A program made the position numbers and the translations under genes. From Coriobacteriia bacterium (GTDB taxonomy: Bacteria; Actinomycetota; Coriobacteriia; WRKU01; WQUG01): a DNA stretch of 47,361 nucleotides. Each line of letters starts with the position of its first letter. Positions within the stretch are counted from its first letter, which is position 1. The notes beneath the pieces were generated by a model. The model saw only the letters and a list, made by a program, of their open reading frames with translations, made no database searches and had not been told where the DNA came from. Location: the NCBI GenBank assembly GCA_009781115.1, contig WQYT01000003.1, positions 1 to 47,361 on the forward strand, in the 5' to 3' direction. Positions 4,865-42,655 of the stretch are shown here, piece by piece.

Positions 4865-7132
4865 CTACTTTGCGGGCGCAAACGGCCCCGGGGTAGCCGT
4901 AGCCGCCTGCGATTGAGACGCCTTTAGCTCGTCGTAAGCCTGTTTGGCTTGCTGGAATCGTGGGTCGCCCTTTACGCAGAACTGGAATTGCTTGAGTGCC
5001 TCATCCATCTTGCCCTGCCCCTGAAGCGCCAGGCCATAATAATAGCGCAGCGCAAGCCCGTTGGGCATGGCGTCAACCTGCGGCGAAAGCGTTTTTACCG
5101 TTTTGTCATAGTAGGCGTTTGCCTGCTTAGTGTTGCCAAGGCTCTGGTACTGCCCCCCCATCATATTCCAGAAAATGGCGGCATACAGATAGCTGTCATA
5201 CTCATAGGGAGAAAGCTTTAGGAGAGTCGTGATCGACTGCTCGGTCTGTTTAATCTGAGCCGCGGCGTTTTGCGGACTTTTCTGGACGGCTGCCTGTGTC
5301 TTCTGAGTCAGCAGGCTGACTTCGCGGGCACGATAGATCTCGATCGTCGGATTAAGACGACAGGCGCTCTTTGCCTCTGCAATCGAAGCGTCCAGCGCGT
5401 TCTCATCCAGATTGCCTTTATCGTCCTGCGTACTATAGGCGCCTGCCAGATAGTAATGGTGATCGGCCATGATAAAGCGCGTCGCAAACACCGTGGGCAC
5501 CAGCGCAAGCACGACTGCGGCTACCGAAGCGGGCACCACCCAGGGCACCGGATCGATCACGACTGCCCTGGTGCGCGGCACGATCAGAACCCCCAGGAGG
5601 ATCCACAGCAGGAAGCTTGCGCCCGGGATCGATATGCCAAAGAAAAGGTGGACGTTATAGGCAACGACCGCCGCGACAAAGCCGATAAATATCATCCGCT
5701 CGCCCTTGTGCTTATCATCAGGCGCGACACACAGCTTGATCGCCGGGGCAATGACCCAGACCATAAAGGAATAAAAGGCCAGCATCCCGATGACACCGAT
5801 ACCCACCGCAAGCTGCAGGGGAAAGTTATGCACGTTATCGGCAACATTATCAAAGCTCGCGTCCTTGTTGTACACAAAGGGCTCAAACCGGCGAAACACC
5901 AGACGAAACGTATCCGAGCCCCATCCAAAGAGGGGCCGCTCCTTGATCGCACGCAGCGCCGCGCCCCATATCTCAAAGCGCGTCAGGGCGCTGCCTGACT
6001 TAAACTGGAAGATCGAGGTCACCCGGCTCCAGAAGTTCATGACGACCGATTTTGATCCGAGCGAAGTAACCGCCACAAGTACTGCCCCCAGGCCTACGCC
6101 CCCGGCAAAACCAAAGTCGAGCTTCATCCAGCGCGGCTTTTGCTTGATCAGCAGGATGACCGCCAGAATCAGGCCGACTGCGCCGCCGACCCAGATCGAG
6201 CGCGACTTGGCAGTGATCATCACCATGCCATTAAGCACCAGCACGATCCAGTAAAAGACCCGCCAGCTTTTGCGTTCCTCCGAGAGCACCAGGCCCAGCG
6301 TGACAAAGAAGCCAAACGCAAGAAAGCCGGCAAGCAGGTCGGGATTGCCGTAGGTAGAAAACGAGCGGAACTTCTCGAAAGGAAGCTGGCCCCAGGGCAA
6401 CAGATCAAGATTGAGGCTTACGGCCGACTTCAAACCAAAGATATGCTTGCCAATAAACGTGAACGCAGGATTCAGGACCGCAGGGAGCCACTGGAGCAGC
6501 CCATAAAACGCCACGAACAGGCTGGAAAGGCTGAGCGTCCGGGCGAGCAGTTTGATGCGTTCATAGGTCGTCACATACTGCACCGTGACAAAGAACAGGA
6601 TCGCGTAGATCAGGTAGGACCAGAGTCCGTCATAACGCTTATGCTTGCCAAAAAACGCCGTCAACGGCGATACGGACACGACCGTGCTGATGCCAATCCA
6701 AATCAGAAGGCCCGCCAACAGGAGATATATCTTGTGATAGCGAATCTCTCCCCCGTTTTTGAGCAGGTCGATCAGCCAGGAGACCAGCAGGACCAGCGAG
6801 CCGACCCTCAGGACCCACACCTTGACCGTATCAAAGGCGTCATAGGTGACCATCCCCTGGTTCGCGAAAAAGAAGTTCATCGCAAGCGGCACCAAAAAGA
6901 CGAGCGTCAGAAGCACGTAGAACGTGAAGCGCCCTTCGGCTGACATCTCGCGCATCGAGAAATCGCCGATCTCCGGCGCGAACTCGGCGCCGTGCGCGCC
7001 TGCAGCGGCGACGGCAGCAGGCTCAGAGCTGCGGGTCTTTTGCTGGGCCGGCGAAGACTCAGTTTGCGCCGCCGCGTTGCGGAGGGTGGTCGGTTTGTGC
7101 TGCTTTGATTTTGATTTTTTCCGTTTTGCCAT
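4865..7132 (-). CDS. O-antigen ligase / oligosaccharyltransferase family (Wzy_C) protein with C-terminal TPR-like domain
   Basis: At least 12 hydrophobic segments; motifs GNPDLLAGFL, SRSIW, RFEIW, GWGSDTF and DNVHN (conserved His); soluble TPR-like C-terminus. Confidence 0.85.
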   Translation of the reverse strand: MAKRKKSKSKQHKPTTLRNAAAQTESSPAQQKTRSSEPAAVAAAGAHGAEFAPEIGDFSMREMSAEGRFTFYVLLTLVFLVPLAMNFFFANQGMVTYDAFDTVKVWVLRVGSLVLLVSWLIDLLKNGGEIRYHKIYLLLAGLLIWIGISTVVSVSPLTAFFGKHKRYDGLWSYLIYAILFFVTVQYVTTYERIKLLARTLSLSSLFVAFYGLLQWLPAVLNPAFTFIGKHIFGLKSAVSLNLDLLPWGQLPFEKFRSFSTYGNPDLLAGFLAFGFFVTLGLVLSEERKSWRVFYWIVLVLNGMVMITAKSRSIWVGGAVGLILAVILLIKQKPRWMKLDFGFAGGVGLGAVLVAVTSLGSKSVVMNFWSRVTSIFQFKSGSALTRFEIWGAALRAIKERPLFGWGSDTFRLVFRRFEPFVYNKDASFDNVADNVHNFPLQLAVGIGVIGMLAFYSFMVWVIAPAIKLCVAPDDKHKGERMIFIGFVAAVVAYNVHLFFGISIPGASFLLWILLGVLIVPRTRAVVIDPVPWVVPASVAAVVLALVPTVFATRFIMADHHYYLAGAYSTQDDKGNLDENALDASIAEAKSACRLNPTIEIYRAREVSLLTQKTQAAVQKSPQNAAAQIKQTEQSITTLLKLSPYEYDSYLYAAIFWNMMGGQYQSLGNTKQANAYYDKTVKTLSPQVDAMPNGLALRYYYGLALQGQGKMDEALKQFQFCVKGDPRFQQAKQAYDELKASQSQAATATPGPFAPAK

Positions 7133-7135
7133 AGC

Positions 7136-8455: not shown

Positions 8456-8456
8456 C

Positions 8457-9584
8457 TCAGGCCAGCGCCTCCGTATAAACCCGCGTCGTTGCGGCCACCA
8501 TCGCGTCCGTGCTGAAGTCGGCCAGGGCCCGGGCCTGAGCCTGGGCGCCGAGACGAGCGCGCAGCGCGTCGTCTGCCAGCAGGCGGTTGATCGCCGCGGC
8601 CAGAGCCTCAGCGTCGCCTGCCGGCGCCGTCAGGCCGGTTACGCCGTCAAGGTTGGCATAGGTCACTCCCGTGGGCAGGTCACTGCTGACAACGGGCGTG
8701 CCCGCCGCGTGGGCTTCAATCTGGACCAGGCCAAAGGCCTCTGAAGGCGAGGTCGAAGGCAGGGTCAGCACGTCAGCGGCATGATACCAGGCTGCCAGCT
8801 CCGCATCGTCAACCCCGTCGATGATATGCAGCCGCTCGCTTGCCCCCGCTGCGGCGGCAAGGCTCGTCAGCACCGCGCGCTCAGACCCTGTGCCAATGAC
8901 CACGAACTGCGCATCTGGCACCAGGGGCAGCGCTCGACCCAGCACCTCGACGCCCTTGTAATAGACCAGCCGCCCCACGAACAGCACCAGCGGCGCGCCG
9001 CCAAAGGACGCGCGCAGCTCGCGGGCGCGCTCGATTGCCGCCGGATCATGCGCAATGCGCTCGACCGGCAGGCCAAAATTGACCTGTCGGCATTTGGCGG
9101 CGCGCCCCGCCAGATTGGCCGAACCCTTGATTAACTGAGGCGAGGACGCGATAATCAGGCGCGCGCGGTCAAGAAAACGATTCAAAAAAGGCTGGTAGAA
9201 GCGCAGAGCCAGCTTCTGACGGACGATATCTGAATGATAGGTCACCACATAAGGCGCCGTCTTAGAAGCCGCCTGGAGGGTCCACTGCGCCTCTCCCCAG
9301 GGATAGGGAAAGTGGAAGTGGAGCAGGTCTGCGCTTCTGGCCTCATGGGCCAACACGCGTCCAAAGTTATGGGCGATGGGCGTGGAGGCGACTTCCGTGC
9401 GCCGTGGCAGACGTAGCACTTCGACCCCGCAGATGACCTCTTCTGCATAGCGATGCTCGTTGTTGCAGACAATCACGCGCACCTGATGGCCCGCGACCGC
9501 CAGGGCCTCAGCCAGGTCGCGGACATGAAACTCGATGCCTCCAATGTGGGGCGGGTAGTACTTGTTGACCAGCGTCAGGCGCAT
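8457..9584 (-). CDS. Glycosyltransferase family 4
   Basis: YYPPHIGGIE, FVGRLVYYKG and EAFGLVQIEA (ExxxxxxxE) motifs. Confidence 0.92.
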   Translation of the reverse strand: MRLTLVNKYYPPHIGGIEFHVRDLAEALAVAGHQVRVIVCNNEHRYAEEVICGVEVLRLPRRTEVASTPIAHNFGRVLAHEARSADLLHFHFPYPWGEAQWTLQAASKTAPYVVTYHSDIVRQKLALRFYQPFLNRFLDRARLIIASSPQLIKGSANLAGRAAKCRQVNFGLPVERIAHDPAAIERARELRASFGGAPLVLFVGRLVYYKGVEVLGRALPLVPDAQFVVIGTGSERAVLTSLAAAAGASERLHIIDGVDDAELAAWYHAADVLTLPSTSPSEAFGLVQIEAHAAGTPVVSSDLPTGVTYANLDGVTGLTAPAGDAEALAAAINRLLADDALRARLGAQAQARALADFSTDAMVAATTRVYTEALA

Positions 9585-9587
9585 CGG

Positions 9588-11060
9588 TCAGTCGACCGGA
9601 TCTGCGATGAGGCGGCCTATACCCGGGATATCAGCGGCCTGCGGCTGCTCGACGCCCGTCGTTACCAGCCAGTATCCGGCGTTGAGCAGGCGATCAGTTG
9701 CCTGCTGCGTAAGCGCTTCGGCATAGATTCGCACCAGCGGCTCAGTCCCTGAGGGACGCAGCAGCAGCCATTGGTCATCGTCAAAGCGCAGCTTCAGCCC
9801 ATCGTGGTCGGTGGCGTCGCACAAGCTGAGCCCCGTGACCTGCGCGGGCCTGAGCGTGGGGATACGGGCTAAGAAGCCCTCCATCTGCTCCGGGCTCAGC
9901 CGCACGTCGATGCGCCGGTACTTCATGTCGCCGACCCGCTCATAGATATCTTCCATGAGCGCCTTCAGCGGCTTCTTGCGCGCGGCCATCACATTGACAA
10001 GCAGGATCGCCATCAGCAGCCCGTCACGCTCAAGCAGATGCCCGGGGATCCCGATGCCCCCGCTCTCCTCGCCGCCGATGAGCACCGGGCGCTCGATCAT
10101 CTGCTCGTAGACCCACTTAAAGCCGATCGGGGTCTCGATGCAGTCGCAGCCAAGCGCACGCGCGATGCGGTCAACCAAGACTGAGCCCGCGCGGGTCTTG
10201 ATGATCGCGCCCGTCTGCCCCTTGTCTTCTACCAGGTAAGTCGCCAGCAGCGCCATAAGTTTGGGAGGCGCTATCCAGAGGCCTGTCTCGTCAAGCGCGC
10301 CAATGCGATCAGCGTCGCCGTCGGTAATCAGCGCCGCCACACTGCCGGTGGCAAGCACCGCCTCGCGCGCCGGGGCCACCCAGGGCTCTATCGGCTCAGG
10401 ATGCAGGCCCCCAAAGCCGGGATTGCGCTCATCGTGGATTTCATGGACGGTCACGCCCGCCTCACGCAGGAGCCCGGCCAGAGCGCCCTGGCCGGCGCCG
10501 TAGAGCGGATCGACCACGACTTCCACTGGCCAGGCAGCGATGGCGCGGGTATCTATCTGGGCGCGCAACGCCTCCAGATAGGGGCTGAGCAAGTCCTCAG
10601 TCTCGACCTCAGCGCGCGCGTAGTCCGCGTGCTGCGGAAGCGCGGCTACAATGCGGTCCGTAAATTCGGGGAGCGCCGCGCCGCCGTCGGCCAGGCGCAC
10701 TTTATAGCCCAGATAGCTGCTGTCGTTATGGCTGGCCGTCAGCATCACCGCGCCGACCACGTCTGCGCGACGTGCCGCCGCCCAGCACAGTGTTGGCGTC
10801 GGGATGATGCGATCGGACAGGATCACGTTGACGCCATGGGCAGCGATGACCTCTGCTGCCAGACGCGCAAAGGCGTCGGCGCGAAACCGCGCGTCATAGC
10901 CTACCAGCAGAGTAGCGCCGGGTTGCGTGGACACGTCCGCAAAGACCTCCGCGGTCGCCTGCGCGAGGCGCGCAAGAGAGTCGCTCGTGAAGTCATCGCC
11001 GATGACCGCGCGCCATCCGTCAGTTCCAAAATGGATAGCCGCCTGCTCCGCCTGCTCCAT
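9588..11060 (-). CDS. Phosphoglucomutase/phosphomannomutase family protein
   Basis: FGTDGWR, TASHN (phosphoserine loop), DGDADR (metal), GEES and RPSGTEP motifs. Confidence 0.95.
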   Translation of the reverse strand: MEQAEQAAIHFGTDGWRAVIGDDFTSDSLARLAQATAEVFADVSTQPGATLLVGYDARFRADAFARLAAEVIAAHGVNVILSDRIIPTPTLCWAAARRADVVGAVMLTASHNDSSYLGYKVRLADGGAALPEFTDRIVAALPQHADYARAEVETEDLLSPYLEALRAQIDTRAIAAWPVEVVVDPLYGAGQGALAGLLREAGVTVHEIHDERNPGFGGLHPEPIEPWVAPAREAVLATGSVAALITDGDADRIGALDETGLWIAPPKLMALLATYLVEDKGQTGAIIKTRAGSVLVDRIARALGCDCIETPIGFKWVYEQMIERPVLIGGEESGGIGIPGHLLERDGLLMAILLVNVMAARKKPLKALMEDIYERVGDMKYRRIDVRLSPEQMEGFLARIPTLRPAQVTGLSLCDATDHDGLKLRFDDDQWLLLRPSGTEPLVRIYAEALTQQATDRLLNAGYWLVTTGVEQPQAADIPGIGRLIADPVD

Positions 11061-11069
11061 AGGGACTCC

Positions 11070-12254
11070 TTATCCGATTAATTCATTGAACAGCTTGATA
11101 TAGCTTTCAAGCATCTTCTTCTCGCTGAACTGTTCGCGCGCCCGCGCAGCGCCCGCCTCGCCCATCTTACGGGCGCGCTCAGGATCAAGCAACAGCTCTT
11201 TGAGGGCTGCGGCAAACGCCTCCTTGTCTTCCGGCGGAACCAAAATGCCGGTCTCGCCATCAGCGACCACCTCAGGGATTCCGCCGGTCTCAAAAGCAAC
11301 CACCGGCTTACCGTGCGCCATTGCCTCAAGCGCGACAACCGCTACCGCCTCAGAGCGCGAAGGCATGGCCACGACATCGCTGACGCGATACCAGCGCGAG
11401 ATCTGCGGCGCAAAGCCCATGATCTCAAAGTGATCGGCAATGGCCTCCTTGCGCAGCCAGGCGTTGAGGGCCTCCTTATCAGGGCCGGTGCCCGCCACCC
11501 GGAAGTTTGGCGCCGCTATCGTGGTGTCAGTAGGCCAGTCGCGCAGGATACGCGCCGCAACCTCCTCAAGAATATCGACCCCTTTGCTCTCAACCAGATT
11601 GCGGGCGACCGCAAACACCAGCGGACGGCCCGCAAGCCGGGCATCGTCTTCGGGCATCTTGGGCGCGCCAGAACCCGTCAGATTGACGGCGGCGTCAACA
11701 AAGGCGTCAGCGTCGATGCCGTTGGGGATCACCACGATCTCTTCTGCGGGAACCCCGTTTTCTACCAGCGCGTCAGAGACTGCCGCAGAAAGCGCGACGT
11801 ACACATCATTGTATTTACGCTTGGTCTGGCCAATAAGCTCCTTGGGAGAAAATGAAACCTTGCCCCCGGAAAAATCGAACGCCGAAGACGGAATGCGCGA
11901 CACGATGTTGACCACGTGCGCGCTGTCCGGCGCGCCGCGACGCACGAGCATGTTGGAAAAAAAGCTGGTGCCAACCACCAGATTGGCATTCATGCGCCAG
12001 GCCATATGATGAATGCTGCGCTTGAGGCGCCCCATATGAAATGCGCCCATCGCTACCGCGTCAACTTTGGCGCCCGCCTCGATGGCCGCGTGCGCAAAGC
12101 CTGAGCCCGCCGCAGCTACCACCCCTACCTGCGCGCCCGCAGCAAGCAGGCCCTTGACAAGCGGTATCGCGCGCGTGCCATAACGCCCGATATTGGGGCC
12201 AGAAAAACTATTTACGATAACAACGCGCAGATTTTGTGCCGACTGATCAGACAC
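11070..12254 (-). CDS. Glycosyltransferase family 4
   Basis: VIPNGID, ESKG and SEAVAVVALEAMAHGKPVV...GGIPE motifs. Confidence 0.9.
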   Translation of the reverse strand: MSDQSAQNLRVVIVNSFSGPNIGRYGTRAIPLVKGLLAAGAQVGVVAAAGSGFAHAAIEAGAKVDAVAMGAFHMGRLKRSIHHMAWRMNANLVVGTSFFSNMLVRRGAPDSAHVVNIVSRIPSSAFDFSGGKVSFSPKELIGQTKRKYNDVYVALSAAVSDALVENGVPAEEIVVIPNGIDADAFVDAAVNLTGSGAPKMPEDDARLAGRPLVFAVARNLVESKGVDILEEVAARILRDWPTDTTIAAPNFRVAGTGPDKEALNAWLRKEAIADHFEIMGFAPQISRWYRVSDVVAMPSRSEAVAVVALEAMAHGKPVVAFETGGIPEVVADGETGILVPPEDKEAFAAALKELLLDPERARKMGEAGAARAREQFSEKKMLESYIKLFNELIG

Positions 12255-12291
12255 GATTCACCTCTCAGCTAGAACTGACTTCTCGCGTTTT

Positions 12292-12300
12292 ATTGTAACA
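12292..12300 (-). promoter_or_regulatory. Putative internal extended -10 promoter (TGnTACAAT)
   Basis: The minus strand reads TGTTACAAT in the 85-nt gap upstream of the GT starting at 12254. Confidence 0.4.
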
Positions 12301-12339: not shown

Positions 12340-13497
12340 CTACCAGCTGCAGAGACGCTCGTAGAGAGCAAGCGTTGCTTCAGCCGACTGGTGCCAGCTG
12401 AAGGTCGCCGCACGCTTGTAGGCCGCGGCAGAAAGCGCGTCAACGAAGTCCTGGTCGCGCGCGATGTGAAGCAGCAACGCGGCAAGCTCCTCGGGGTCAT
12501 CGGGCTTGAAGTAGACCGCCCCGGCCCCCTCGCCTTCGCCCAGAACTTCTGGCAGCGCACCTGCGTGAGCAGCCAGGATCGGGGTCGCAAAGCTTGCCGC
12601 CTCAAGCGCGCAGGTACCAAAGCTTGCATAATGCGACGGGGCAACAAAGGCAAGCGTATGAGCATAGAGCCAGCGCAGCTCCTCATCGGTAACCCGGTTT
12701 GTGAAATGAATCAGTTCTGAGGCTGCCAAGGGCAGTCGTGGCGCAAGTTGCCCTGATCGGTTCTTGCCAACCAGCAGCAGGCGAGGACAGGCCCGCACAT
12801 CAAAACCCGTCAGGGCGGCGGCCTGCTGGAAAAAGTGCCCGAAGGCCTGCACCACAACAGAAAGATTCTGGTAGGGCTGCGCGTTGCCCATCGCCAGGAA
12901 AAACTGCGTCGGCGGCAGGCGGTGCATGAGGTCGGGCATCAGTTCTTTGCCCGTGGCGACAAAGTCGTCTGCCGCCTTAGGGATGACGCAGAGCCTGTCT
13001 GCGGCTACAGGAAAGCGGCGCGCAACAACATCTGCCGCCTGCTGCGTGGGCACGATGAGCGCCTGGGAAGTCTTGGCTGCGCGGGCGACCAGACGCAGGG
13101 GTCCGCGGCACTGGGGCGCGGGTATCAGGCTGTCTTCGAGGACAAGCGGCGCCAGGTCATGCAGCGTAGCCACCAAAGGCGTCTTTGTCCGTAGACCCGC
13201 CACAGCAGGATCGAGAACATGCACGACCTCAGGGTCGAGCCGACGAATAATCCGGGAAATCTCACGCAGACCCGCAGGCGTTGCCGGGTCCTTGCTCAGC
13301 GTGATCACCTGGCATTTCTGCCGGCGCTCGCTGAAGGAGGTCTGGCCGGCAGCCACGATAAGCGTGAGCTGAGGGCGCGTCTGCGACGGCAGCTGAAGCA
13401 GGCCACCCACAAGTCCGCGTGCATAACGAACCAGACCAGGGCGAGAAGAAGTGGCCACGACGGCAACAGAAAGCCGGATCGACGGACCGTCAGACAT
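12340..13497 (-). CDS. Glycosyltransferase family 4-like, with degenerate catalytic motif
   Basis: Likely start MSDGPS after GGAGGA; ATLHDL, LYAHT..FVAPSHYASFGTCALEA and FSW motifs. Confidence 0.8.
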   Translation of the reverse strand: MSDGPSIRLSVAVVATSSRPGLVRYARGLVGGLLQLPSQTRPQLTLIVAAGQTSFSERRQKCQVITLSKDPATPAGLREISRIIRRLDPEVVHVLDPAVAGLRTKTPLVATLHDLAPLVLEDSLIPAPQCRGPLRLVARAAKTSQALIVPTQQAADVVARRFPVAADRLCVIPKAADDFVATGKELMPDLMHRLPPTQFFLAMGNAQPYQNLSVVVQAFGHFFQQAAALTGFDVRACPRLLLVGKNRSGQLAPRLPLAASELIHFTNRVTDEELRWLYAHTLAFVAPSHYASFGTCALEAASFATPILAAHAGALPEVLGEGEGAGAVYFKPDDPEELAALLLHIARDQDFVDALSAAAYKRAATFSWHQSAEATLALYERLCSW

Positions 13498-19873: not shown

Positions 19874-19891
19874 CGATTATTAGCTCCTCTA

Positions 19892-22467: not shown

Positions 22468-22475
22468 CGCTTACC

Positions 22476-23621: not shown

Positions 23622-23656
23622 CACTGGACTCCTTTCGCTGATATCACCAGCGATCC

Positions 23657-27539: not shown

Positions 27540-27602
27540 ATACTGAACTCCTTCATATTGTTGATGTCCTGACAAAGTTTACGCTTTCCAAAAAATCATC
27601 CT

Positions 27603-31938: not shown

Positions 31939-31988
31939 AAATCCATCTCCTTGTAAGGTTACGTATATCCAGCACGCTGATACAAAGC

Positions 31989-33224: not shown

Positions 33225-33226
33225 GC

Positions 33227-34477: not shown

Positions 34478-34488
34478 ATCCAACTCTC

Positions 34489-35739
34489 TCAACGCTTGAG
34501 TGATTGATACAACTCAACCAATTTTTTCTTCTGAAGATCCCAGCTGAAGTAGGGCGCTGCCACAAGCGCCCTGCGCTTCATCCCGGAGACTTCGCCGGGG
34601 TGCTTCTGCAAAAAATCAATGGCGTCAACCACACTTGAATGGTCCGGGTAAAGATATCCGCATCCCGTTTCATCAACGATCGTCCTGAGAAAGACCGCTT
34701 CTTCTGAACCGACAAGAGCAAGGCCCGCGGAAAGATAATCGAAAAGCTTATTGGGAGAAGCCATCTTCAGGCTCACGTTGATCTTTGTATCAAAATTGCA
34801 AAGCCCCACATCAAAACCAGTAGCGCTCTTTACGATGTCAGCAGTAGGAACAGGAGGAATAATCCGCACGACATCTTGCAAGTCAGCGTCTATGATAGCT
34901 TGCCTCATGTCTCTTTCCTGACTTTCGTAACCAAAGCCCTGAAACACTAATTCAAACCCACGATCAAGGCGGGCAAGCTCAGAGATCATCGCGGGAAAAT
35001 AGTAGTAGTAGGCAAAGTTCCCCAGATAAAGGATCCTTAACGGCCGATGCGCTTCCTGGGTGCTCTCAGCGACCTCGGTACCTCCGTTGTAGATCACAGA
35101 AGGTATTTCCGGCAGATCGTAATAGTCCTTGAGGTAGCGTGCAAGAGACTCGTTCACGGTGATGACCCTGGCGCAATCTTTAAGAAGGCGCGCCTCGACA
35201 CGGCGCAGTTTCTCCAGCCTTTTCTGCCCCACATGGGCAAGGCGATTATCTGCCAGAAATATCTCATGTGAGTCATATACCAGCCGTGCACCTGATCGTT
35301 GCGCCAGCTTTGCGCCCGTTGTAAGCATATCGAAGTCATTAACATGAACCACGTCAAAAGCGCGCCCGCGCACTGCCTTGAGCATCCAGGGACGTGTTGA
35401 GGTGAAATTACATCGACGGATCGGCTCCAGCGAAAGATTGACCGCGACCCTGAGCGGATAAAAGACCGTCTCGCGCCCCCAACGCGCGTACCACTCAGGG
35501 ATCTTTATTCCCTGGGTCAAAATGAGTTCATAGGGCAATTGCGAGATATCGCCCGGATAAGGATCAGGTCCAGCCTGACCTATAAGCGTCACGTGCGCCC
35601 CCGCCTCAGCCAATGCCGCACATTCCTTCTTTACCCGCGAATCGATCGAGGTATTATTACTGACAAGCGCACAAATACGCATGCCGCACAAAGGCTGGCT
35701 CTGGTTGTTCTGACCTTCGGTTGCTTCCTGAGATTGCAT
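34489..35739 (-). CDS. Glycosyltransferase (GT4-like), tandem paralogue 3
   Basis: Same motifs (DSRVKKE, YDSHE, SPNKLFDYLSAGL). Confidence 0.85.
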   Translation of the reverse strand: MQSQEATEGQNNQSQPLCGMRICALVSNNTSIDSRVKKECAALAEAGAHVTLIGQAGPDPYPGDISQLPYELILTQGIKIPEWYARWGRETVFYPLRVAVNLSLEPIRRCNFTSTRPWMLKAVRGRAFDVVHVNDFDMLTTGAKLAQRSGARLVYDSHEIFLADNRLAHVGQKRLEKLRRVEARLLKDCARVITVNESLARYLKDYYDLPEIPSVIYNGGTEVAESTQEAHRPLRILYLGNFAYYYYFPAMISELARLDRGFELVFQGFGYESQERDMRQAIIDADLQDVVRIIPPVPTADIVKSATGFDVGLCNFDTKINVSLKMASPNKLFDYLSAGLALVGSEEAVFLRTIVDETGCGYLYPDHSSVVDAIDFLQKHPGEVSGMKRRALVAAPYFSWDLQKKKLVELYQSLKR

Positions 35740-35751
35740 AGTCAGTCTTTC

Positions 35752-36492
35752 CTACTGATTCTCCAGCAACTCTTCTTCTGCGACCGGGCGCACCGATTTA
35801 GCTGGCACACCCATCACGAGCATATGAGCGGGCACGTCACGGGTCACGACTGAGCCGGTCGCGATGAAACTGTCTTCACCGATCTCGATCCCCGGGAGGA
35901 TATGAACGCCGCCGCCCACGCGGGCGCCCCGTCGGATCATGCAGCCTCGCATCTCTTTCAGGCGCTTCTCGGTACGCCCCATGTAGTTGTCGTTGGTCAT
36001 GACGACCATCGGCGCAATGAAGACATCTTCCTCGACCGTGACATAGGCGGTCACATACGCCCCTGACTGGATACGTGTTCGCGAACCGATAGTCGTGTCG
36101 TTTTCGACCGTCACGCTGCGCCCTACGATCACGTTGTCGCCGATGACGCAGCGCTCGCGCACGCCAGCGTTATCCCCTACGATGCACTCTGAACCGAAGG
36201 TCGTGCCCGCCATGAGCACGGTATGCGAGCCGACCGAGCAGCCATCCCCCAGCGTCAGCGGGCTCAGCACGCCGCCGCCCGCTGTTGAGGCCTTGCCCAA
36301 CTTTGGCTGCTTACCTAGGAGAGCAAAATCAGACACCGTGCAGTTCGCACCGAGCCGGGTTCCTGCCTTTATCGTGACCTGATTACCGACGGTAGAATGC
36401 GCGCCTATGGTGACGCCTTCTTCGATGATGACATTCTCGCCAATAGAAACAGTCGGATCAATATGTGCCTGCACAGAGATCAGATTAGCCAT
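35752..36492 (-). CDS. Hexapeptide-repeat N-acetyltransferase (WbpD/WlbB-like)
   Basis: Left-handed beta-helix hexapeptide repeats; VFIAP.VVMTND and VVTRDVP...VMGVPA motifs; GAAAGGA RBS. Confidence 0.88.
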   Translation of the reverse strand: MANLISVQAHIDPTVSIGENVIIEEGVTIGAHSTVGNQVTIKAGTRLGANCTVSDFALLGKQPKLGKASTAGGGVLSPLTLGDGCSVGSHTVLMAGTTFGSECIVGDNAGVRERCVIGDNVIVGRSVTVENDTTIGSRTRIQSGAYVTAYVTVEEDVFIAPMVVMTNDNYMGRTEKRLKEMRGCMIRRGARVGGGVHILPGIEIGEDSFIATGSVVTRDVPAHMLVMGVPAKSVRPVAEEELLENQ

Positions 36493-36639
36493 GATGATCC
36501 TTTCATTAATCTTACTCAAAAAAACCGTTCAACCACTACGCTTCAAGCATACCCTACCGCCTCTGGCGAGAACACCTCCCCGGGGCCTCTGTCGCACACT
36601 TGATACCCTTGTTCCTTTACCGCCACGCTGAATAATCCC

Positions 36640-36648
36640 TGCTATAAT
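36640..36648 (+). promoter_or_regulatory. Extended -10 promoter (TGnTATAAT) for the L,D-transpeptidase gene
   Basis: TGCTATAAT lies about 40 nt upstream of the ATG at 36688. Confidence 0.55.
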
Positions 36649-36687
36649 GGGAACGCTTAGTTTTTTCTCGTAGATTTGGATTGAAGT

Positions 36688-38469
36688 ATGAGACAGTATT
36701 CAAAAACCCTCCTGATTGTTGTGGCAGCTCTGTTCGTTTTAAGCATGCTTCCGCTCAGTAGCACGGGAGCATCACCGCAGGGCTCAAATACCACGACTGA
36801 TACGGCATCGACCACAATGCCTGCCGCACCGGCCCCTGCCGCGTCTGCTGCGTCAGCCGCCCTTCTGGCTACTGCGGCTGCCCCCGCCTGGAATACCTAC
36901 CAGGAAACCAATCACAACATCGCCTACGCAGGCGCCTGGGGCAAAGCTTCCTCTTCTGCAAGCTCCGGCGGAGCGGTGTGGCTTACTTCAGCCAAAGGAG
37001 CTTCTGCTACCTTTACCTTTACCGGAACCGGCGTCGAGTGGGTTGGCATCAAAGCGGCTACCTACGGGACCGCTTCGGTCTCTGTTGATGGAGGCAGTGC
37101 AACTACGGTCAAGATGACTGCTTCTTCTACCTCATACCAACAGGCGCTCTTTCATAAAGAGGGACTGGCTAATAAGACCCATACTCTGAAAATCACCGTC
37201 ACCTCTGCTAAGCCCAAGCTCGTCTGTGTGGACGCCTTCAAAGTACAAGGTATCGCCGGTGTTCCTGATCCGGCTCCACGCCCTGCAACGCCTTCAGGCA
37301 ACGGTTGGGTTGCCTACTCTGAGACCAGTAGCTACCTCAACTACTATGGCCCCTGGAGTAAAGTGGCCTCTTCTGCCAGCGCAGGTGGAGCCGTCAAGCT
37401 AGCCACCAAGAAGGGCGCCGCCTTCCAGATTCGCTTTAAGGGAGACGCGATCGAATGGGACGGCATCAAAGCTGCTACCTATGGTAAAGCACAGGTCACG
37501 CTTGATACCGTCAGTCAGGGAACGGTCAACCTAACTACTAACAGCACCTACCACAAGCAAGCGCTGTTCCGCAAAAGCGGACTGGACGCAAGCAAAGTCC
37601 ATACCTTAACGGTGACGGTTGCCTCTGAAGCTCCCAAGCTTGTCGGTATCGACAACATCATGGTGCATGGCGGTTCTGCCCTTAGCTTTGCGCCGGCAAC
37701 AACGGCTGGCAATGGCTGGAACGCCTATGAGGATACGTCCTCCTACATCAGCTATTCAGGCTCCTGGAATAAAGCGACCTCTTCTGCCTGCATCGGCGGC
37801 GCGGTCAAGCTCAGCAGCAAAAAGGGCTCGTCGTTTCAGGTAACCTTTAAAGGGAGCGCCATCGAGTGGATCGGCATCACGGCAAAAACCTATGGTTCTG
37901 CAACCGTCGTCCTTGATGGGGACACCCAAAAAGCAGTCAACCTGAACACCTCAACAACCCAGTACAAGCAAGCGCTCTTCCATCGCGAAGGCCTGGATGC
38001 CACCAAGAACCACGTCCTGAAAGTCACCGTTACATCTTCTGCGCCCAAGCTCGTCTGTGTTGACCGCATCCTGGTCCTCGGTCATGCTATCTTGCCAGTA
38101 GCGCCGACCTATGTCGATGTTGATATCTCCGAGCAGACCCTCCGGTATTATGTGAAGGGTAAGCTTGTCCTCACATCCCCGGTCGTGACCGGTCGCCCAA
38201 GTATGCCCACCGTCCAGGGCACGTTCTCGGTCTACCTGAAGTCCCGCAACACCTATCTCACCGGTCCTGGCTATCACACCATGGTCAGCTATTGGATGCC
38301 GTTCTACAAAGGATACGGATTGCATGACGCAGTCTGGCAGGCAAAGTTCGGCGGCACGCGCTACAAGGACGGCTATGGCAGCCATGGCTGCGTAAACATG
38401 CCGCTCGCCAAAGCGCGCGACCTCTACGGAATGATCGCAGTCGGAACAAAAGTGATCGTTCACCAGTAA
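36688..38469 (+). CDS. Secreted L,D-transpeptidase (YkuD) with three tandem beta-sandwich (putative carbohydrate-binding) repeats
   Basis: Signal peptide and Ala/Thr/Pro linker; three ~138-aa repeats starting at about 36889, 37306 and 37717; C-terminal YkuD domain VDVDISEQ...VVTG...LHDA.W...GSHGCVN. Confidence 0.88.
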   Translation: MRQYSKTLLIVVAALFVLSMLPLSSTGASPQGSNTTTDTASTTMPAAPAPAASAASAALLATAAAPAWNTYQETNHNIAYAGAWGKASSSASSGGAVWLTSAKGASATFTFTGTGVEWVGIKAATYGTASVSVDGGSATTVKMTASSTSYQQALFHKEGLANKTHTLKITVTSAKPKLVCVDAFKVQGIAGVPDPAPRPATPSGNGWVAYSETSSYLNYYGPWSKVASSASAGGAVKLATKKGAAFQIRFKGDAIEWDGIKAATYGKAQVTLDTVSQGTVNLTTNSTYHKQALFRKSGLDASKVHTLTVTVASEAPKLVGIDNIMVHGGSALSFAPATTAGNGWNAYEDTSSYISYSGSWNKATSSACIGGAVKLSSKKGSSFQVTFKGSAIEWIGITAKTYGSATVVLDGDTQKAVNLNTSTTQYKQALFHREGLDATKNHVLKVTVTSSAPKLVCVDRILVLGHAILPVAPTYVDVDISEQTLRYYVKGKLVLTSPVVTGRPSMPTVQGTFSVYLKSRNTYLTGPGYHTMVSYWMPFYKGYGLHDAVWQAKFGGTRYKDGYGSHGCVNMPLAKARDLYGMIAVGTKVIVHQ

Positions 38470-38489
38470 GGATCAAGAAGGATCATACC

Positions 38490-38524
38490 AAAAAAGAGAG
38501 GGAGCTGAGCTCCCTCTCTTTTTT
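38490..38524. terminator. Bidirectional rho-independent terminator
   Basis: AAAAAAGAGAGGGAGCT-g-AGCTCCCTCTCTTTTTT between the convergent LDT and GH25 genes. Confidence 0.9.
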
Positions 38525-38561
38525 AAAACTGTTTTCCAATTAGCCTTCCAGCGGGCAGACT

Positions 38562-40349
38562 TTAGGGTTTAAAGGATACACCGGTTGGGTTGCGTGAGCT
38601 GTATGAGGCCACTGTTCCCCAGGTTGTAGTTGTGGTCTTATCCCAGGCGCGTACCGTGTAGGTGTATTTGGCGCCCTTAGAGGTCTTGGTGTCAGTCCAG
38701 GAGCGCACAGCAGGACCTACGCTGGCAACCCTGGTCCACCCGGAGCTTCCCCTCTTGCGATAGACGTAGTAGCCATCGGCGTTCTTGGAGCCCACCCACG
38801 TGACTTTGATAGCGTTGGAGCCCGACTTAGCGCGCACAGCAGGCTTCAGCTGGGGCATATTCAGGTAACGGATGTAGATTCCCGGGCTCTTATAGCCGCC
38901 AGTGCTTGAGCCTGTGTAGGCACGCACCATGTAGGCATGGGCGACGCCTGAGGTCACCTTCTTATCAACGTAGCTGGTGATACTATCCCCGCTTATGACA
39001 GCCATCCGCACCCAGCTGCTTCCCGTAGCAGCAGTCCTGCGATAAACCCGGTAGCCCTGCGCACCAGCAACTTTGCCCCAGGTGAACTTGGTGTAGCCCT
39101 TGCCGTTTATCACCGACTTCAAAGCCGGAGTCGCCACAAAGGTCGCAGAGACCCCCGTGGGATTATAACTGCTGAGCAGCGAGCCCTTATAGGCGCGAAG
39201 AGTGTAGGCGTACTTGGTGGCGCCCGATACCTTGGAATCGATATAACTGGTTGCAGACGGCGCAACTTTTGCGATCTTTGTCCAGGAAGTGGCGGCGCCC
39301 GCTTTACGATAGAGATAGTAGCCGTCAATACCTGCAATCTTATGCCACGTGATGGTAACCGATGAGGCCCCTGGCTTCGCAGAGCCCAGGAGAGGCGTTG
39401 CGGGCGGCGGCACAGGCGCAGACGCAGGAACAGTAAAGAAGTCAGAACGGTACTGGATCGAAACATCCAGCGCCGCGCTCGCACTCATCCCCGTAAAATA
39501 TGCCCGGGATGAATATTGCCAGGCGCCATAGGTCGTATTTTGCAGCGCGCTTGAACTGGGAGTGCTTAAAAAATACTGAGCGATCCACATATTCTTAGGC
39601 CCGAGCGTCGTCGCGTTCATCACACCTGACGTTACCCACGAAAGCGAACAGTAGTAGCGCACATTGGCAAAACCGGCGGCATTAAGCGTCTTTGCAAAGG
39701 TAAGCGAGGCAGCCGTCCAGTCATAGCCAGATGACGTGCCCTCCGCGTCCTCGATCATCATGGTAGATATCGGGAGCCCGAGCGCATCAGCACGCGCGGC
39801 AAAATGCCGGGCCTCAGCCGCGATGCTGTTCGGGTCATACACATAGTGATAGGCCGCAACCTTCAGGCCGGCAGCTTTTGCATACGCGATCTGCTGCGCT
39901 GCATAGGGGTTACTGTAGGTTGTTCCCTCGGTGAGCTTTACCACCACATACTTAACACCGCTGAGCTTCAGGGTGTTGAAATCGGCTTGTGTCATCCAGC
40001 TCTGCCAACTTGCCACATCGACGGCATCGGTACGCGGCAGTGACGCGTCCGGCGGATAGATGTTGGGCGGAGCTGCAGCCAGCATTGGCGGAAGGGGAGC
40101 GGGAGCAGTGACAAGCGGGGCTCCTGTGCGTTGTGGCGCTGGCACTGACGCATGCGAGGCATCAGGTGCGATCGTCGATCCCATCGCATGGTTGTCATGG
40201 TTGTCAACGCTCCCGGACGCCTGGGGCGCAGACGCAGGCGCCAAAGACGCCGCCTGGGCAGACGCGGGCGCCGGGGCCAGAGCCAGAAAAGCCCCTGCCA
40301 GCAAGGCCATCGTGAGCGCAAACGCGAGAGATTTCTTCAAAAAATGCAT
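38562..40349 (-). CDS. Secreted GH25 muramidase (lysozyme) with three C-terminal fibronectin type III-like repeats
   Basis: Signal peptide (APASA); DVASWQ, KLTEGT, AYHY, DAE (DxE), WIAQY and WQYSS motifs; three W...GY.(L/V)YR...W...Y.(L/V)RA repeats. Alternative GTG start at 40358. Confidence 0.88.
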   Translation of the reverse strand: MHFLKKSLAFALTMALLAGAFLALAPAPASAQAASLAPASAPQASGSVDNHDNHAMGSTIAPDASHASVPAPQRTGAPLVTAPAPLPPMLAAAPPNIYPPDASLPRTDAVDVASWQSWMTQADFNTLKLSGVKYVVVKLTEGTTYSNPYAAQQIAYAKAAGLKVAAYHYVYDPNSIAAEARHFAARADALGLPISTMMIEDAEGTSSGYDWTAASLTFAKTLNAAGFANVRYYCSLSWVTSGVMNATTLGPKNMWIAQYFLSTPSSSALQNTTYGAWQYSSRAYFTGMSASAALDVSIQYRSDFFTVPASAPVPPPATPLLGSAKPGASSVTITWHKIAGIDGYYLYRKAGAATSWTKIAKVAPSATSYIDSKVSGATKYAYTLRAYKGSLLSSYNPTGVSATFVATPALKSVINGKGYTKFTWGKVAGAQGYRVYRRTAATGSSWVRMAVISGDSITSYVDKKVTSGVAHAYMVRAYTGSSTGGYKSPGIYIRYLNMPQLKPAVRAKSGSNAIKVTWVGSKNADGYYVYRKRGSSGWTRVASVGPAVRSWTDTKTSKGAKYTYTVRAWDKTTTTTWGTVASYSSRNPTGVSFKP

Positions 40350-40405
40350 TCTTTTCACCTAACCCATTTTACGCCCTCTGCAAACGGGAGGGCACAGCAC
40401 ACCCG

Positions 40406-41722
40406 TCAGAGCCTTAAGATATGGCCGCCCGTAAAGTCTTTCATCGCGTTGCGCGTGTCAAAGATCAGTTGAGCGTGTTCTGCCACCAGGGCGTAGTCAA
40501 CTTCAGTGTGCGCAGTCAATATCACCACCGCATCGGCAGCCTCGATCTCTGCTGCCGTCAGCTCTACGCGATCGATCTGGTGCCCGTCGAACTGATAGTC
40601 CGGCACAAAGGGGTCGTGATAGACAACGTCGGCTTCACGGTCCAGCAGGTGATCAATGACCTTGACCGCCGGGCTCTCACGCATGTCATCGATGTCGGCC
40701 TTGTAGGCCACGCCCAGCACCAGAACACGGGCGCCTGCCAGTGACTTGTGCTGCATGTTAAGCGCCGCCATCAGGCGGTCGGCCACATAGTAAGACATAT
40801 TCTCGTTGACCTTGCCCGCCAGCTCGATAAACTGCGTGTGGAAATCGAACTCGCGCGCTTTCCAGCTCAGGTAGTACGGATCAATGGGAATGCAATGCCC
40901 GCCCAGACCGGGGCCAGGATAGAAGGGCATAAAGCCAAAGGGCTTTGTCTTGGCCGAGTCAACGACCTCCCACATGTTGATGTCCATGCGCTCGCAGAGT
41001 TGCACCAGCTCATTGACCAGCGCAATATTGACGCAGCGGAAGATGTTTTCCAAGAGCTTGCTCATCTCGGCTGCGCGCGCGGTGCTGACCGGCACCACCA
41101 CGTCCAGGAAGCTCCGGTAAAACGCCACCGCAAGCTCGCCGGAGCGCGACGTCACGCCACCAACGACCTTGGGGGTATCCTTCGTATGATGCGTCGGATT
41201 ACCGGGATCGACGCGCTCAGGAGAAAACGCCACAAACACATCAGTCCCGACCGTATGACCAGCGCCTTCAAGAATCGGCACGATGACCTCGTCGGTCGTC
41301 CCTGGATAGGTGGTTGATTCAAGCGTGACCAGCGTCTCGCCGCGCAGGTGGGGGGCGACAGACTTCGTCGCCTCGACCATAAAGGTCACATCAGGGTCGC
41401 GCATCTTGTCAAGCGGCGTAGGCACACAGATGGCAATCGCGTCGCACTCCGCTGCGCGGGAGAAATCCGTCGTTGCCTGCACCAGGCCACCGTCCACCTG
41501 CTGCGCAAAAAGCTCGCTGTCAACATCGGCGATGTAGCTCTCGCCCGCCGCTGCCGCCGCAACTTTTTCTTCAGAGATATCAAAACCGATAACCTTATGC
41601 CCGGATTGCGCCATGGTGCTTGCCAGGGGCAGGCCCACATAGCCCAGCCCAACCACTCCATAGATGGCTGTCCCGTCCTGGAGCTTTTGCTCCAGCGTCT
41701 TGTCCGTTTGATTAATTGCCAC
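40406..41722 (-). CDS. Nucleotide-sugar (UDP-GlcNAc) 6-dehydrogenase, WbpA/WbpO-like
   Basis: GLGYVGLP, CVPTP, ESTTYPG, SPERVDPGN, GGHCIPIDP (catalytic Cys) and D.RESP motifs; GGAGG RBS before the GTG at 41722. Confidence 0.92.
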   Translation of the reverse strand: MAINQTDKTLEQKLQDGTAIYGVVGLGYVGLPLASTMAQSGHKVIGFDISEEKVAAAAAGESYIADVDSELFAQQVDGGLVQATTDFSRAAECDAIAICVPTPLDKMRDPDVTFMVEATKSVAPHLRGETLVTLESTTYPGTTDEVIVPILEGAGHTVGTDVFVAFSPERVDPGNPTHHTKDTPKVVGGVTSRSGELAVAFYRSFLDVVVPVSTARAAEMSKLLENIFRCVNIALVNELVQLCERMDINMWEVVDSAKTKPFGFMPFYPGPGLGGHCIPIDPYYLSWKAREFDFHTQFIELAGKVNENMSYYVADRLMAALNMQHKSLAGARVLVLGVAYKADIDDMRESPAVKVIDHLLDREADVVYHDPFVPDYQFDGHQIDRVELTAAEIEAADAVVILTAHTEVDYALVAEHAQLIFDTRNAMKDFTGGHILRL

Positions 41723-41755
41723 GTTTTTCCTCCATTTTCTCAATCAACCTGTGAT

Positions 41756-42655
41756 TTATTTGCCGTTCGTGCTCTCACTGCCCGCAGACATCAGCACGGC
41801 GAGGAGCTCTCGCAGCTCGCCCGCATAGCGTTCGTCGCGCAAAGCGAGGGTAATATTAGCCTCAAGCCATGATAATACATTTCCCGTATCAAAGCTGCTC
41901 TCCGGCTCAACTTCAACCGCATACAGTGGTTCAGCGTCCAGAAGCGCCAGCAGCGCATCGGTCAGCTGGATCTCGCCACCTGCCCCCGGCTTGGTGCAAT
42001 CCAGAAGCTCCATCAGATGCGGCGTCAGCAGATAGCGCCCCATGATAGCCAGATTGCTGGGCGCCACATCCGGCGACGGCTTTTCGACTAAGGCGTTCAC
42101 GCGATAGCATGGCGCCTGCGCGGCCGCCTCAAGCTCAGCGACCGGCTGGGCGCCAATAATGCCATACCGGCTGAGGTGCTCGTCGTCAACACGCTCGACC
42201 GCAATGACAGAAGCGCCGGTCTGCTCGTAAACCGCCTGCAACTTTGGCAGAATGTCGCAGCGCGGCACAACAATGTCACCCAACAGCACAAAGAAGGGTT
42301 CGCTGTCAGTGAAGGCCGCCCCACAGTGCACCGCATGCCCCAGCCCCAGCGGGGACTTCTGGCGTACGTAATAGAGCTGCGCCAGATCTGAGACCTGCCT
42401 GACCGACTCAAGATACGCGCTTCCCTTGTCGCGCAGGTTCTGCTCAAGTTCGACCGAACGATCAAAGTGGTCCTCGATCGCGCGCTTGCCGCGTCCGGTG
42501 ACCAGAAGGATCTGATCGATACCGGCTGCAGCCGCCTCTTCGATCACATACTGCATGATGGGTTTGTCTAAAACGGGCAACATCTCTTTTGGCTGGGCTT
42601 TGGTGACCGGCAAAAAACGCGTACCTAAGCCAGCTGAGGGGATAATCGCTTTCAT
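41756..42655 (-). CDS. galU: UTP--glucose-1-phosphate uridylyltransferase
   Basis: AGLGTRFLPVTKAQPKEMLP, LGLGHAV, VEKP and GEIQLTDA motifs. Confidence 0.93.
   Translation of the reverse strand: MKAIIPSAGLGTRFLPVTKAQPKEMLPVLDKPIMQYVIEEAAAAGIDQILLVTGRGKRAIEDHFDRSVELEQNLRDKGSAYLESVRQVSDLAQLYYVRQKSPLGLGHAVHCGAAFTDSEPFFVLLGDIVVPRCDILPKLQAVYEQTGASVIAVERVDDEHLSRYGIIGAQPVAELEAAAQAPCYRVNALVEKPSPDVAPSNLAIMGRYLLTPHLMELLDCTKPGAGGEIQLTDALLALLDAEPLYAVEVEPESSFDTGNVLSWLEANITLALRDERYAGELRELLAVLMSAGSESTNGK

Follow-up and report, generated by a model that had tools for sequence, protein, structure and literature searches.

The locus described here raises a simple question: what does a bacterium without recognisable lipid A do with a lipid-linked glycan when the last enzyme of the pathway resembles a lipopolysaccharide (LPS) ligase? 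The locus lies on contig WQYT01000003.1 (positions 1-47,361, assembly GCA_009781115.1, Coriobacteriia bacterium), and this whole stretch of 47,361 nucleotides is referred to as the window. It is contig C3 of the host genome G000, which has 1.98 Mb in 128 contigs, a GC content of 57% and a completeness of 87.5%. The initial annotation proposed that an initiating phosphoglycosyltransferase (PGT), ten glycosyltransferases of family 4 (GT4), a fused ABC exporter and a Wzy_C enzyme with a tetratricopeptide repeat (TPR) tail build one glycan and transfer it en bloc to surface proteins. The searches with Pfam and NCBIfam confirmed this gene set. In this study, we found that the genes next to the Wzy_C enzyme form a conserved core joined to a variable block of sugar genes. 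Judged by profile and predicted fold, the enzyme itself belongs to the WaaL superfamily (GT-C_B, Wzy_C). We believe that it is probably a ligase, and proteins are tentatively put forward as its acceptor.

The Wzy_C domain of the enzyme scored 68.3 bits against a Pfam cut-off of 31.7. A structure search with the single sequence gave TPR matches only, and a family profile was required to reach WaaL. The profile of the membrane core matched one solved membrane protein, WaaL of Cupriavidus metallidurans (7tpg_B, E 1.6e-7), and a consensus TPR was matched by the family profile at E 1.7e-31. The AlphaFold2 model of the enzyme (pLDDT 85.8, pTM 0.86) had 7tpg_B as its top Foldseek match (E 1.2e-5). 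In VIA-align, model residues 62-520 superposed on 7tpj_B with a Z of 18.8 and an rmsd of 4.8 over 358/403 residues, and the second-best membrane fold was FtsW with a Z of 11.3. In an alignment of 36 family members, R311, R385 and H435-N436 were invariant (36/36). These residues align to R191, R265 and H313-N314 of 7tpg_B, of which R191, R265 and H313 are presumably the catalytic residues of WaaL. The WaaL motif H[NSQ]x9Gxx[GTY] occurred in 35/36 members versus 22/2000 shuffles. A catalytic role of WaaL-type Arg and His residues is partly stated in passages of PMC12800693.

In the model, the WaaL fold (residues 62-520, 12 transmembrane helices) is followed by a 13th transmembrane helix (532-565) and a TPR domain (577-745), and the N-terminal stretch of about 60 residues is Lys/Arg-rich and disordered. 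WaaL itself has 12 helices. With 13 helices and the Lys/Arg-rich N-terminus inside, the catalytic loop and the TPR domain would face outward, and by this helix counting both are predicted to be extracytoplasmic. The model agreed with the first description of a Wzy_C ligase with a TPR-like extension: the enzyme is WaaL-like in fold, and its TPR tail would be external. The tail aligned with many TPR proteins at a Z of 12-14.7 (VIA-align) and showed no similarity to the stand-alone TPR proteins of the host genome. Identity computed among 29 distant family members was 62% in the loop 361-436, 46% in the membrane core and 26% in the tail. The loop was richest in invariant residues (R370, R385, D407, R410, D432, H435 and N436). 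In the tail, E644, D646, R696 and D723 were invariant in 36/36 members, and Y645 and Y648 were kept in at least 90%.

One genome per species was scanned, which gave 171 relatives of the ligase; 80 loci were kept, and their neighbours were determined by tblastn with all window proteins. Ligase identity across the 80 loci was 33-79%. Of the 65 loci with at least 1.5 kb of upstream sequence, at least 52 had the PGT as the immediate upstream neighbour of the ligase. The glycosyltransferase GT4_a was present in 53/60 loci, no farther than 4.5 kb upstream of the ligase gene and with 46-84% identity. A sugar-phosphate mutase was near the ligase in 48 of the 56 loci with at least 4.3 kb upstream, and PGT, GT4_a and mutase occurred together near the ligase in 40/56 loci. 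The results showed that a four-gene core of PMM-like mutase, GT4_a, PGT and ligase is syntenic across environmental Coriobacteriia. At two loci, L015 and L019 (ligase 43-48% identical), the core stood without other glycan genes nearby. Its flanks there were topoisomerase I, a YkuD gene or, in L019, the dcw cluster (mraZ-mraW-PBP-murE-murF-mraY).

The distribution was surveyed in 301 sampled genomes of the class, with thresholds of E<=1e-30 for the ligase and E<=1e-120 for the orthologue of the ABC exporter. The ligase was found in 144 genomes and the ABC orthologue in 69. By family, the ligase was present in 42/44 (f5), 13/14 (f8), 13/14 (f11), 19/20 (f12) and 11/14 (f23) genomes. Three families had neither the ligase (0/33, 0/28 and 0/79, together 0/140) nor the ABC orthologue; the last of them is mostly one genus (0/72). 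By hand count, 24 of the 68 genomes other than G000 with the ABC orthologue had it on the ligase contig at a distance of at most 30 kb; in most of the others, the two genes were on separate contigs because the assemblies are fragmented. A single TAG flagged in ABC orthologues proved to be their natural stop codon. Since related genomes lack independence, the counts are descriptive and not tests. The core is conserved across a whole uncultured branch of the class.

The rest of the locus changes between genomes. The congener G010 (79% identity) has the ABC exporter, the DegT aminotransferase, the acetyltransferase, both GFO oxidoreductases and GT4 b, c, d and h. The tblastn identities were 87% for GT4 b, 57% for c, 71% for d and 79-84% for DegT, ABC and acetyltransferase. 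The same searches gave no match in G010 to orthologues of GT4 e, f and g (only a 25% match to f), to any gene of pseudaminic acid (Pse) synthesis, to the 473-aa protein or to WecB. In two genomes of the same family, G004 and G007, only the four-gene core was present at the ligase locus, and the ABC orthologue was at a second locus. The second locus of G004 contained the ABC orthologue, GT4 h/i/j/f-like genes, DegT, NeuB-like and CMP-synthetase-like genes and two homologues of the 473-aa protein. That of G007 contained HemL-GalU-dehydrogenase-WecB-ABC-GT4 in the order of the window. No PGT was matched in these second loci with the window PGT as query. In the window, GC was 60-64% over 8-16 kb (the core side) versus 47-54% over 18-32 kb. 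The data indicate that the locus is modular, with a conserved core joined to a variable block of ABC, diacetamido-sugar, GT4 and Pse genes.

On the evidence of its genes, the host is well supported as a monoderm actinobacterium. The named close homologues of the ligase were metagenome-assembled genomes (MAGs) of Coriobacteriia, Actinomycetes or Thermoleophilia. In the nearest named relative (L014, Coriobacteriia), the matched neighbour proteins were 59-88% identical by tblastn. LpxC and Omp85 gave no match in the 87.5%-complete host genome, and as positive controls they matched in 4 and 7 of 14 known genomes, respectively. Cultured Anaerosomatales, an order of the class, are described as Gram-positive in passages of PMC9686372, and the four-gene core is present in MAGs of this order (L052, L054). 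The assumption of the initial annotation that the host is a monoderm without lpx genes thus agreed with these searches. On the present data, lipid A is ruled out as acceptor, and the lipid A-core acceptor of a WaaL LPS ligase has no sign in the genome at its present completeness.

From gene content, fold, topology, synteny and distribution, we infer a pathway in which each enzymatic step, the role of the flippase, the en-bloc transfer and the acceptor are predicted. The PGT would prime the undecaprenyl lipid carrier, and the conserved GT4_a would put on the second sugar. Up to nine further GT4 enzymes and a GT-B-like candidate pseudaminyltransferase would lengthen the chain in the cytoplasm, using sugars that the locus itself produces: Pse, hexoses and a 2,3-diacetamido sugar or uronic acid. 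Flipping of the completed lipid-linked glycan would fall to the fused ABC exporter, which is MsbA-like. Outside the membrane, the 755-aa enzyme with the WaaL fold would move the glycan en bloc to an acceptor hydroxyl with release of undecaprenyl diphosphate (Und-PP), and its external TPR domain would select or hold the acceptor. The core would fix the reducing end that is read by the ligase, and the outer block would be exchangeable. It is possible that the glycan is one long non-repeating oligosaccharide.

Because the ligase and the reducing-end genes are kept while other glycan genes vary, we believe that the enzyme is a ligase and not a repeat-unit polymerase, and transfer en bloc from Und-PP has good odds. 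The alternative is a Wzy-type polymerase that joins flipped repeat units, with an LCP enzyme that would then anchor the product, a wall polysaccharide or capsule, on peptidoglycan. The Pfam family Wzy_C also covers polymerases, the genome has two LCP genes, and Gram-positive capsule loci usually start with a Bac_transf PGT and GT4 genes. The catalytic residues give no help here. R385, H435 and G446 are kept in each of the five Wzy_C paralogues of the genome, also in the one adjoining Wzx; the Arg/His set is therefore a mark of the superfamily rather than of a ligase, and we rejected it as a discriminator between the two activities. However, the polymerase lacks its partner set, as the initial annotation had held. 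The window lacks Wzx, neither Wzz nor another polysaccharide co-polymerase was found in the 87.5%-complete genome, and the sole genomic Wzx is on contig C24 beside another Wzy_C paralogue (686 aa). The ligase is instead linked to an ABC exporter. The glycan genes differ between congeners and between members of the family, and a polymerase specific for its repeat unit could not stay constant alongside such changes. In structure, the enzyme matches the ligase WaaL best, and no solved Wzy, PglL or TacL was among the structural matches listed. TagO-like and TagF-like genes lie elsewhere in the genome, both LCP genes are in housekeeping contexts, and by gene content the LCP enzymes likely have this separate substrate route. 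A polymerase is thus distinctly unlikely in our view. The organisation of the locus also allows for two systems, in which the core makes a short conserved glycan (e.g. a disaccharide) for its ligase and the outer block makes a separate exported polysaccharide and only happens to adjoin the core in this genus. In G004 and G007, the core lies apart from the outer block; in the window, the two differ in GC as given above, and the plus-strand GFO gene interrupts the minus-strand genes, which makes at least two transcription units. But the outer loci gave no match to the window PGT and the core is without a flippase, and each thus supplies what the other lacks; the window has a single PGT, and the only other Bac_transf of the genome is on C97. 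A core without flippase and an outer block without initiating enzyme and ligase are the main reason to assume one pathway, and two systems seem very improbable. This estimate concerns the organisation of the locus; it overlaps with the estimates for the acceptor and is not additive to them.

For the acceptor, we believe that Ser, Thr or Tyr of secreted or surface proteins is the most likely class, with a rough probability of 0.4, and the enzyme would then be an O-oligosaccharyltransferase like WsfB. The TPR domain, which would face outward, carries invariant polar and aromatic residues, and a monoderm Wzy_C enzyme with a TPR module, as found here in the tail 577-745, is the arrangement given for S-layer O-oligosaccharyltransferases in passages of PMC2943079. 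A separate set of TagO-like, TagF-like and LCP genes would serve wall polymers. The initial annotation had concluded from the lack of lipid A that the acceptor is protein, and this step overlooked TacL. According to passages of PMC5727136, TacL is a monoderm Wzy_C enzyme that ligates an Und-PP-linked chain to Glc-diacylglycerol. By analogy, the flipped Und-PP-glycan could be ligated to a membrane glycolipid to give a lipoglycan, a membrane-anchored macroamphiphile of the sort required by Gram-positive cells, with the TPR domain docking partners of wall synthesis or export. The ligase is near-universal in most families (f5, f8, f11 and f12), it adjoins the dcw cluster in L019, which fits a housekeeping role in the envelope, and the natural acceptor of WaaL, whose fold it shares, is a glycolipid. 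However, the TacL of those passages has 397 aa and no extra domain, versus 755 aa with an added helix and a TPR domain of 200 aa here, and Pfam found no teichoic-acid genes in the window. The shorter Wzy_C paralogues of the genome, one of 477 aa on C13 and a TagF-like fusion on C1, are better TacL candidates. We consider a lipoglycan unlikely. Other outcomes, with peptidoglycan or another wall polymer as acceptor, take up the remainder.

Several results weigh against a protein acceptor. The marker domains of the PglL class, given in passages of PMC12645811 as PglL_A and/or Wzy_C_2, were both absent from the ligase, in which Wzy_C alone was found at E<=0.001 (Pfam), and a PglL-type oligosaccharyltransferase is not indicated. 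An S-layer target was not found either, because the host genome has no SLH or CWB2 proteins, the only S-layer anchoring kinds searched, and no target of the WsaB/WsfB type is in sight. No flagellin was found in the host genome. No fixed neighbouring target gene was present at the ligase loci. TPR domains occur in polysaccharide-export scaffolds too, so the tail is no proof of a protein substrate. A near-universal and mostly single-copy ligase, which lies beside cell-wall genes in some genomes, suits a housekeeping lipoglycan as well. The genome is only 87.5% complete, so the absences, on which the monoderm assignment also draws, are provisional. The multihaem cytochrome gene at 3502-4716 was considered as a dedicated target and rejected, because a hairpin separates it from the ligase gene, the minimal loci do not have it and its neighbourhood is respiratory. 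Its orthologue was downstream in 25 of the 53 loci with at least 8 kb downstream. The surrounding genes are of menaquinone type or belong to cytochrome c maturation. With a protein acceptor, the locus may represent a general en-bloc O-glycosylation of proteins in Coriobacteriia of termite guts and the environment and in related MAGs of Actinomycetota. The glycan would have a conserved reducing-end core from the PGT and GT4_a and outer sugars that differ by strain (Pse and diacetamido sugars in this one), and the targets may include the membrane-anchored multihaem cytochromes, which are frequent neighbours of the ligases. We hold this wider picture a little more tentatively than the acceptor class itself.

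Six-frame open reading frames (ORFs) of the window were scanned with Pfam (40 ORFs) and NCBIfam (20 ORFs). The locus is a near-continuous minus-strand run from GalU down to the Wzy_C protein (Table 1), and the coordinates first assigned to it were correct, with GalU as the far end. Transcription passes from the 6-dehydrogenase through GH25 and the plus-strand YkuD to the acetyltransferase, three GT4, DegT, the ABC exporter, the 2-epimerase and the two GFO genes. Then follow PseB, PseF, PseC, PseG-GNAT, PseI, the 473-aa protein, six GT4, the mutase, GT4_a, the PGT and the Wzy_C protein. By hydropathy, the ligase, the PGT and the ABC exporter are the only multi-span membrane proteins of the locus. 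No Wzx, Wzz, LCP or ABC2-type Wzm domain was found by Pfam in any window ORF, and the reported lack of wzx, wzz/wzc, LCP and wzm/wzt genes therefore stands for the window. The hairpin past the ligase has a stem of about 18 pairs with a 15-base perfect inverted repeat (-34.2 kcal/mol, z -4.95), and 0/200 shuffles folded as well. It has no long T run, and for this reason it was not picked up by the terminator pattern scan. The hairpin is terminator-like and would mark the end of the glycan operon.

Table 1. Features of the glycan locus in the window, in order of position
Feature	Position	Strand	Evidence or remark
GC-rich terminator-like hairpin	4808-4847	minus	immediately past ligase stop codon
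WaaL-fold ligase, 755 aa	4865-7132	minus	Pfam Wzy_C 8.2e-19, residues 297-453
Bac_transf initiating PGT, N-terminal transmembrane helices	7136-8455	minus	Bac_transf 2.9e-64; TIGR03025 366.5 bits, cut-off 295.55
GT4_a, core	8457-9584	minus	Glycos_transf_1 1.3e-36
PGM/PMM-family sugar-phosphate mutase, core	9588-11060	minus	four PGM_PMM domains
GT4 b-g, six genes	11070-12254, 12340-13680, 13490-14710, 14707-15945, 15942-17186, 17170-18414	minus	Pfam
473-aa GT-B-like protein	18452-19873	minus	no Pfam/NCBIfam family
Pse island: PseI, PseG-GNAT (PseH-like) fusion, PseC, PseF, PseB	19892-25368	minus	NCBIfam
GFO/IDH/MocA oxidoreductase, WbpB-like sugar 3-dehydrogenase	25574-26530	plus	NF040723, below cut-off
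GFO/IDH/MocA oxidoreductase, WbpB-like sugar 3-dehydrogenase	26517-27575	minus	NF040723, below cut-off
WecB-type UDP-GlcNAc 2-epimerase	27603-28775	minus	wecB 253.3 bits, above cut-off 210
Fused ABC exporter (transmembrane plus nucleotide-binding domain, half transporter)	28829-30754	minus	Pfam ABC_membrane + ABC_tran
WbpE-like DegT aminotransferase, GT4 h/i/j, WbpD-like hexapeptide N-acetyltransferase	30835-36519	minus	Pfam
GT4 h/i/j triplet	31989-33290, 33227-34492, 34489-35739	minus	Pfam
YkuD L,D-transpeptidase (plus) and GH25 muramidase (minus)	36688-40358	plus and minus	Pfam
NDP-sugar 6-dehydrogenase, WbpA/WecC-like	40406-41743	minus	TIGR03026 427 bits, above cut-off
GalU	41756-42685	minus	galU 318.3 bits, slightly under cut-off 326.8

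Four Pse enzymes scored above their NCBIfam cut-offs (PseI 487.5, PseC 518.2, PseF 286.2 and PseB 497.3 bits). The PseG-GNAT fusion was below both of its cut-offs, with 123.5 of 153.55 bits for PseG and 31.8 of 93.1 bits for PseH. On these scores, synthesis of pseudaminic acid in the locus is well supported for four of its six activities, and the PseG and PseH steps would fall to the fusion protein. The Pse island together with the 473-aa gene (18452-25368) has a GC of 47-53%, versus 57% in the genome and 60-64% in the core genes; the low GC and the lack of a counterpart in G010 suggest that the island was probably acquired horizontally. The two GFO proteins scored 209.8 and 143.7 bits against NF040723, the UDP-GlcNAc 3-dehydrogenase model with a cut-off of 450. 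Members of the Wbp-like set were mostly below the equivalog cut-offs, and their product would be a diacetamido-uronic acid. Of the two unusual sugars named in the initial annotation, Pse is backed by four enzymes above cut-off, and the diacetamido-uronic acid stays a prediction from mostly sub-cut-off scores. The atlas neighbours of the 473-aa protein were LA_1612/PFTS/LIC12162 O-antigen and capsule proteins and, by structure, GT-B glycosyltransferases. Its two homologues in G004 (23-28% identity) adjoin the NeuB-like and CMP-synthetase-like genes. Its GT-B-like character makes the protein an eleventh candidate transferase, and it may be the pseudaminic acid transferase. The tandem triplet GT4 h/i/j, which lies within the diacetamido-sugar genes, has 50-59% pairwise identity, and G010 has two copies (65% and 36%).

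The exporter is a fused type IV ABC exporter, with transmembrane and nucleotide-binding domains in one chain, inside a glycan locus, and in this it is like PglK and Wzk. It scored below cut-off with all NCBIfam models, namely MsbA (338.5 bits), HepA (324.8) and PglK (NF050066, 175.8, where the cut-off is 1000). Among solved chains of half size, MsbA was closest (E 1e-70). By these scores it is a generic ABCB/MsbA-like half transporter. On the PglK score and the relationship to MsbA, the name PglK-type used in the initial annotation had to be dropped, and it is only a functional analogy; the MsbA and HepA models score higher than PglK.

The two wall enzymes of the locus are a YkuD L,D-transpeptidase of 593 aa with a CE2_N-like domain and a GH25 muramidase of 598 aa. 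A CE2_N-like domain was also found in a SpoIID protein adjoining an LCP gene on C35. YkuD is retained at the locus border in G010, and a YkuD gene lies directly 3' of the ligase in L015. To judge from their domains, YkuD and GH25 are wall enzymes, and they may have a part in the glycan pathway. The flanks of the locus (3502-4716 and 44269-45564) are respiratory and encode a membrane-anchored cytochrome with twelve CXXCH motifs and an NrfA-type cytochrome c552. Further flank genes are HemL, TatA and a CcmH-like TPR protein. This respiratory content is unusual for a termite-gut relative of Coriobacteriia.

Other contigs of the genome contain related clusters. A second glycan/respiratory cluster with a repeated triad was found on C24 (L010, 5306-18140). 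Its first part comprises Wzx, Wzy_C (686 aa), TPR (270 aa), NHL-repeat (424 aa) and two multihaem cytochromes, and its second part a weak Wzy_C-like protein (672 aa), TPR (261 aa) and NHL-repeat (438 aa). At L029, L031 and L054, the ligase is followed by TPR, NHL, multihaem cytochrome and ResB/CcsA neighbours. Wzy_C proteins and cytochromes thus recur together. On C1 (L012, 7005-9827), a 940-aa protein fuses Wzy_C to a TagF-like CDP-glycerol glycerophosphotransferase domain and adjoins a second TagF-like gene, GtrA and GT2; this fusion is a candidate teichoic-acid ligase or polymerase. On C6 (L098, 12519-17978), an 1819-aa surface protein with 11 DUF11 repeats and Cna_B lies about 3 kb from an LCP gene. 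From its domains, it is plausibly a wall-anchored adhesin and possibly a target of glycosylation. Wzy_C+TPR proteins of 600-790 aa form large atlas clusters, and the architecture is widespread. Most clusters that show it belong to Actinomycetota, Chloroflexota and candidate phyla. The commonest phyla in these clusters were Doudnaibacteriota, Magasanikiibacteriota, Minisyncoccota and Falkowiibacteriota (candidate phyla radiation), Chloroflexota, Verrucomicrobiota and Acidobacteriota.

To our knowledge, only Pmt-type mannosylation and LCP-mediated glycosylation have been described in Actinomycetota. If the acceptor is protein, the locus would be, as far as we know, the first oligosaccharyltransferase-type protein glycosylation in this phylum, and its compact four-gene core would make this route testable and engineerable. 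A glycolipid acceptor would mean that these Gram-positive lineages make a lipoglycan in the manner of LPS. In both cases, the locus gives a way into the function of the Wzy_C+TPR architecture, which is frequent among uncultured monoderms. The design of a core plus a variable outer part resembles LPS, and the O-glycans of Bacteroidota share it. A literature search on oligosaccharyltransferase O-glycosylation in Actinobacteria gave only Burkholderia tool work, and a search on Coriobacteriia, O-antigen ligase and multiheme cytochrome found nothing treating this enzyme.

Among the known systems, WsfB has reportedly been proven by experiment to be an oligosaccharyltransferase, and PglK of Campylobacter is a fused ABC flippase. 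Passages of PMC2943079 describe WsfB and PglL with a C-terminal TPR motif and WsaB with the TPR neighbour WsaA. WsfB of Paenibacillus alvei and WsaB of Geobacillus stearothermophilus are, in these passages, like the present system in a monoderm host, a Wzy_C enzyme that ends an Und-PP pathway and a TPR module, and the Geobacillus route is also ABC-transporter dependent without a polymerase. Compared by description, they differ in phylum, in their S-layer setting, since SLH and CWB2 were not found here, and in the use of Wzm/Wzt rather than a fused MsbA-like exporter. WaaL (7TPG/7TPJ) shares the fold and the aligned Arg/Arg/His, but it is a 403-residue chain without a 13th helix and TPR, and the present host shows no markers of lipid A or an outer membrane. 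The closest described logic is that of Helicobacter pylori, for which PMC2841628 gives the initiating transferase WecA, glycosyltransferases, the fused ABC flippase Wzk and WaaL without a polymerase. TacL of Streptococcus pneumoniae is likewise a monoderm Wzy_C ligase with an Und-PP-linked donor, but in passages of PMC5727136 its donor is a Wzx-flipped, polymerised teichoic acid. PglL, PglS and TfpO are alike in en-bloc transfer from Und-PP, a WaaL-like enzyme and catalytic His and Arg, and PglS has a periplasmic C-terminal domain (passages of PMC12800693 and PMC12645811). This class and Campylobacter PglK differ in their diderm hosts, in the marker domains missing here and in the low PglK score of the present exporter. 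Overall, the kind of system is already known from WsfB/WsaB, WaaL with Wzk and TacL, and what is new is the phylum, the TPR-tailed architecture with 13 predicted helices and the core-plus-variable design.

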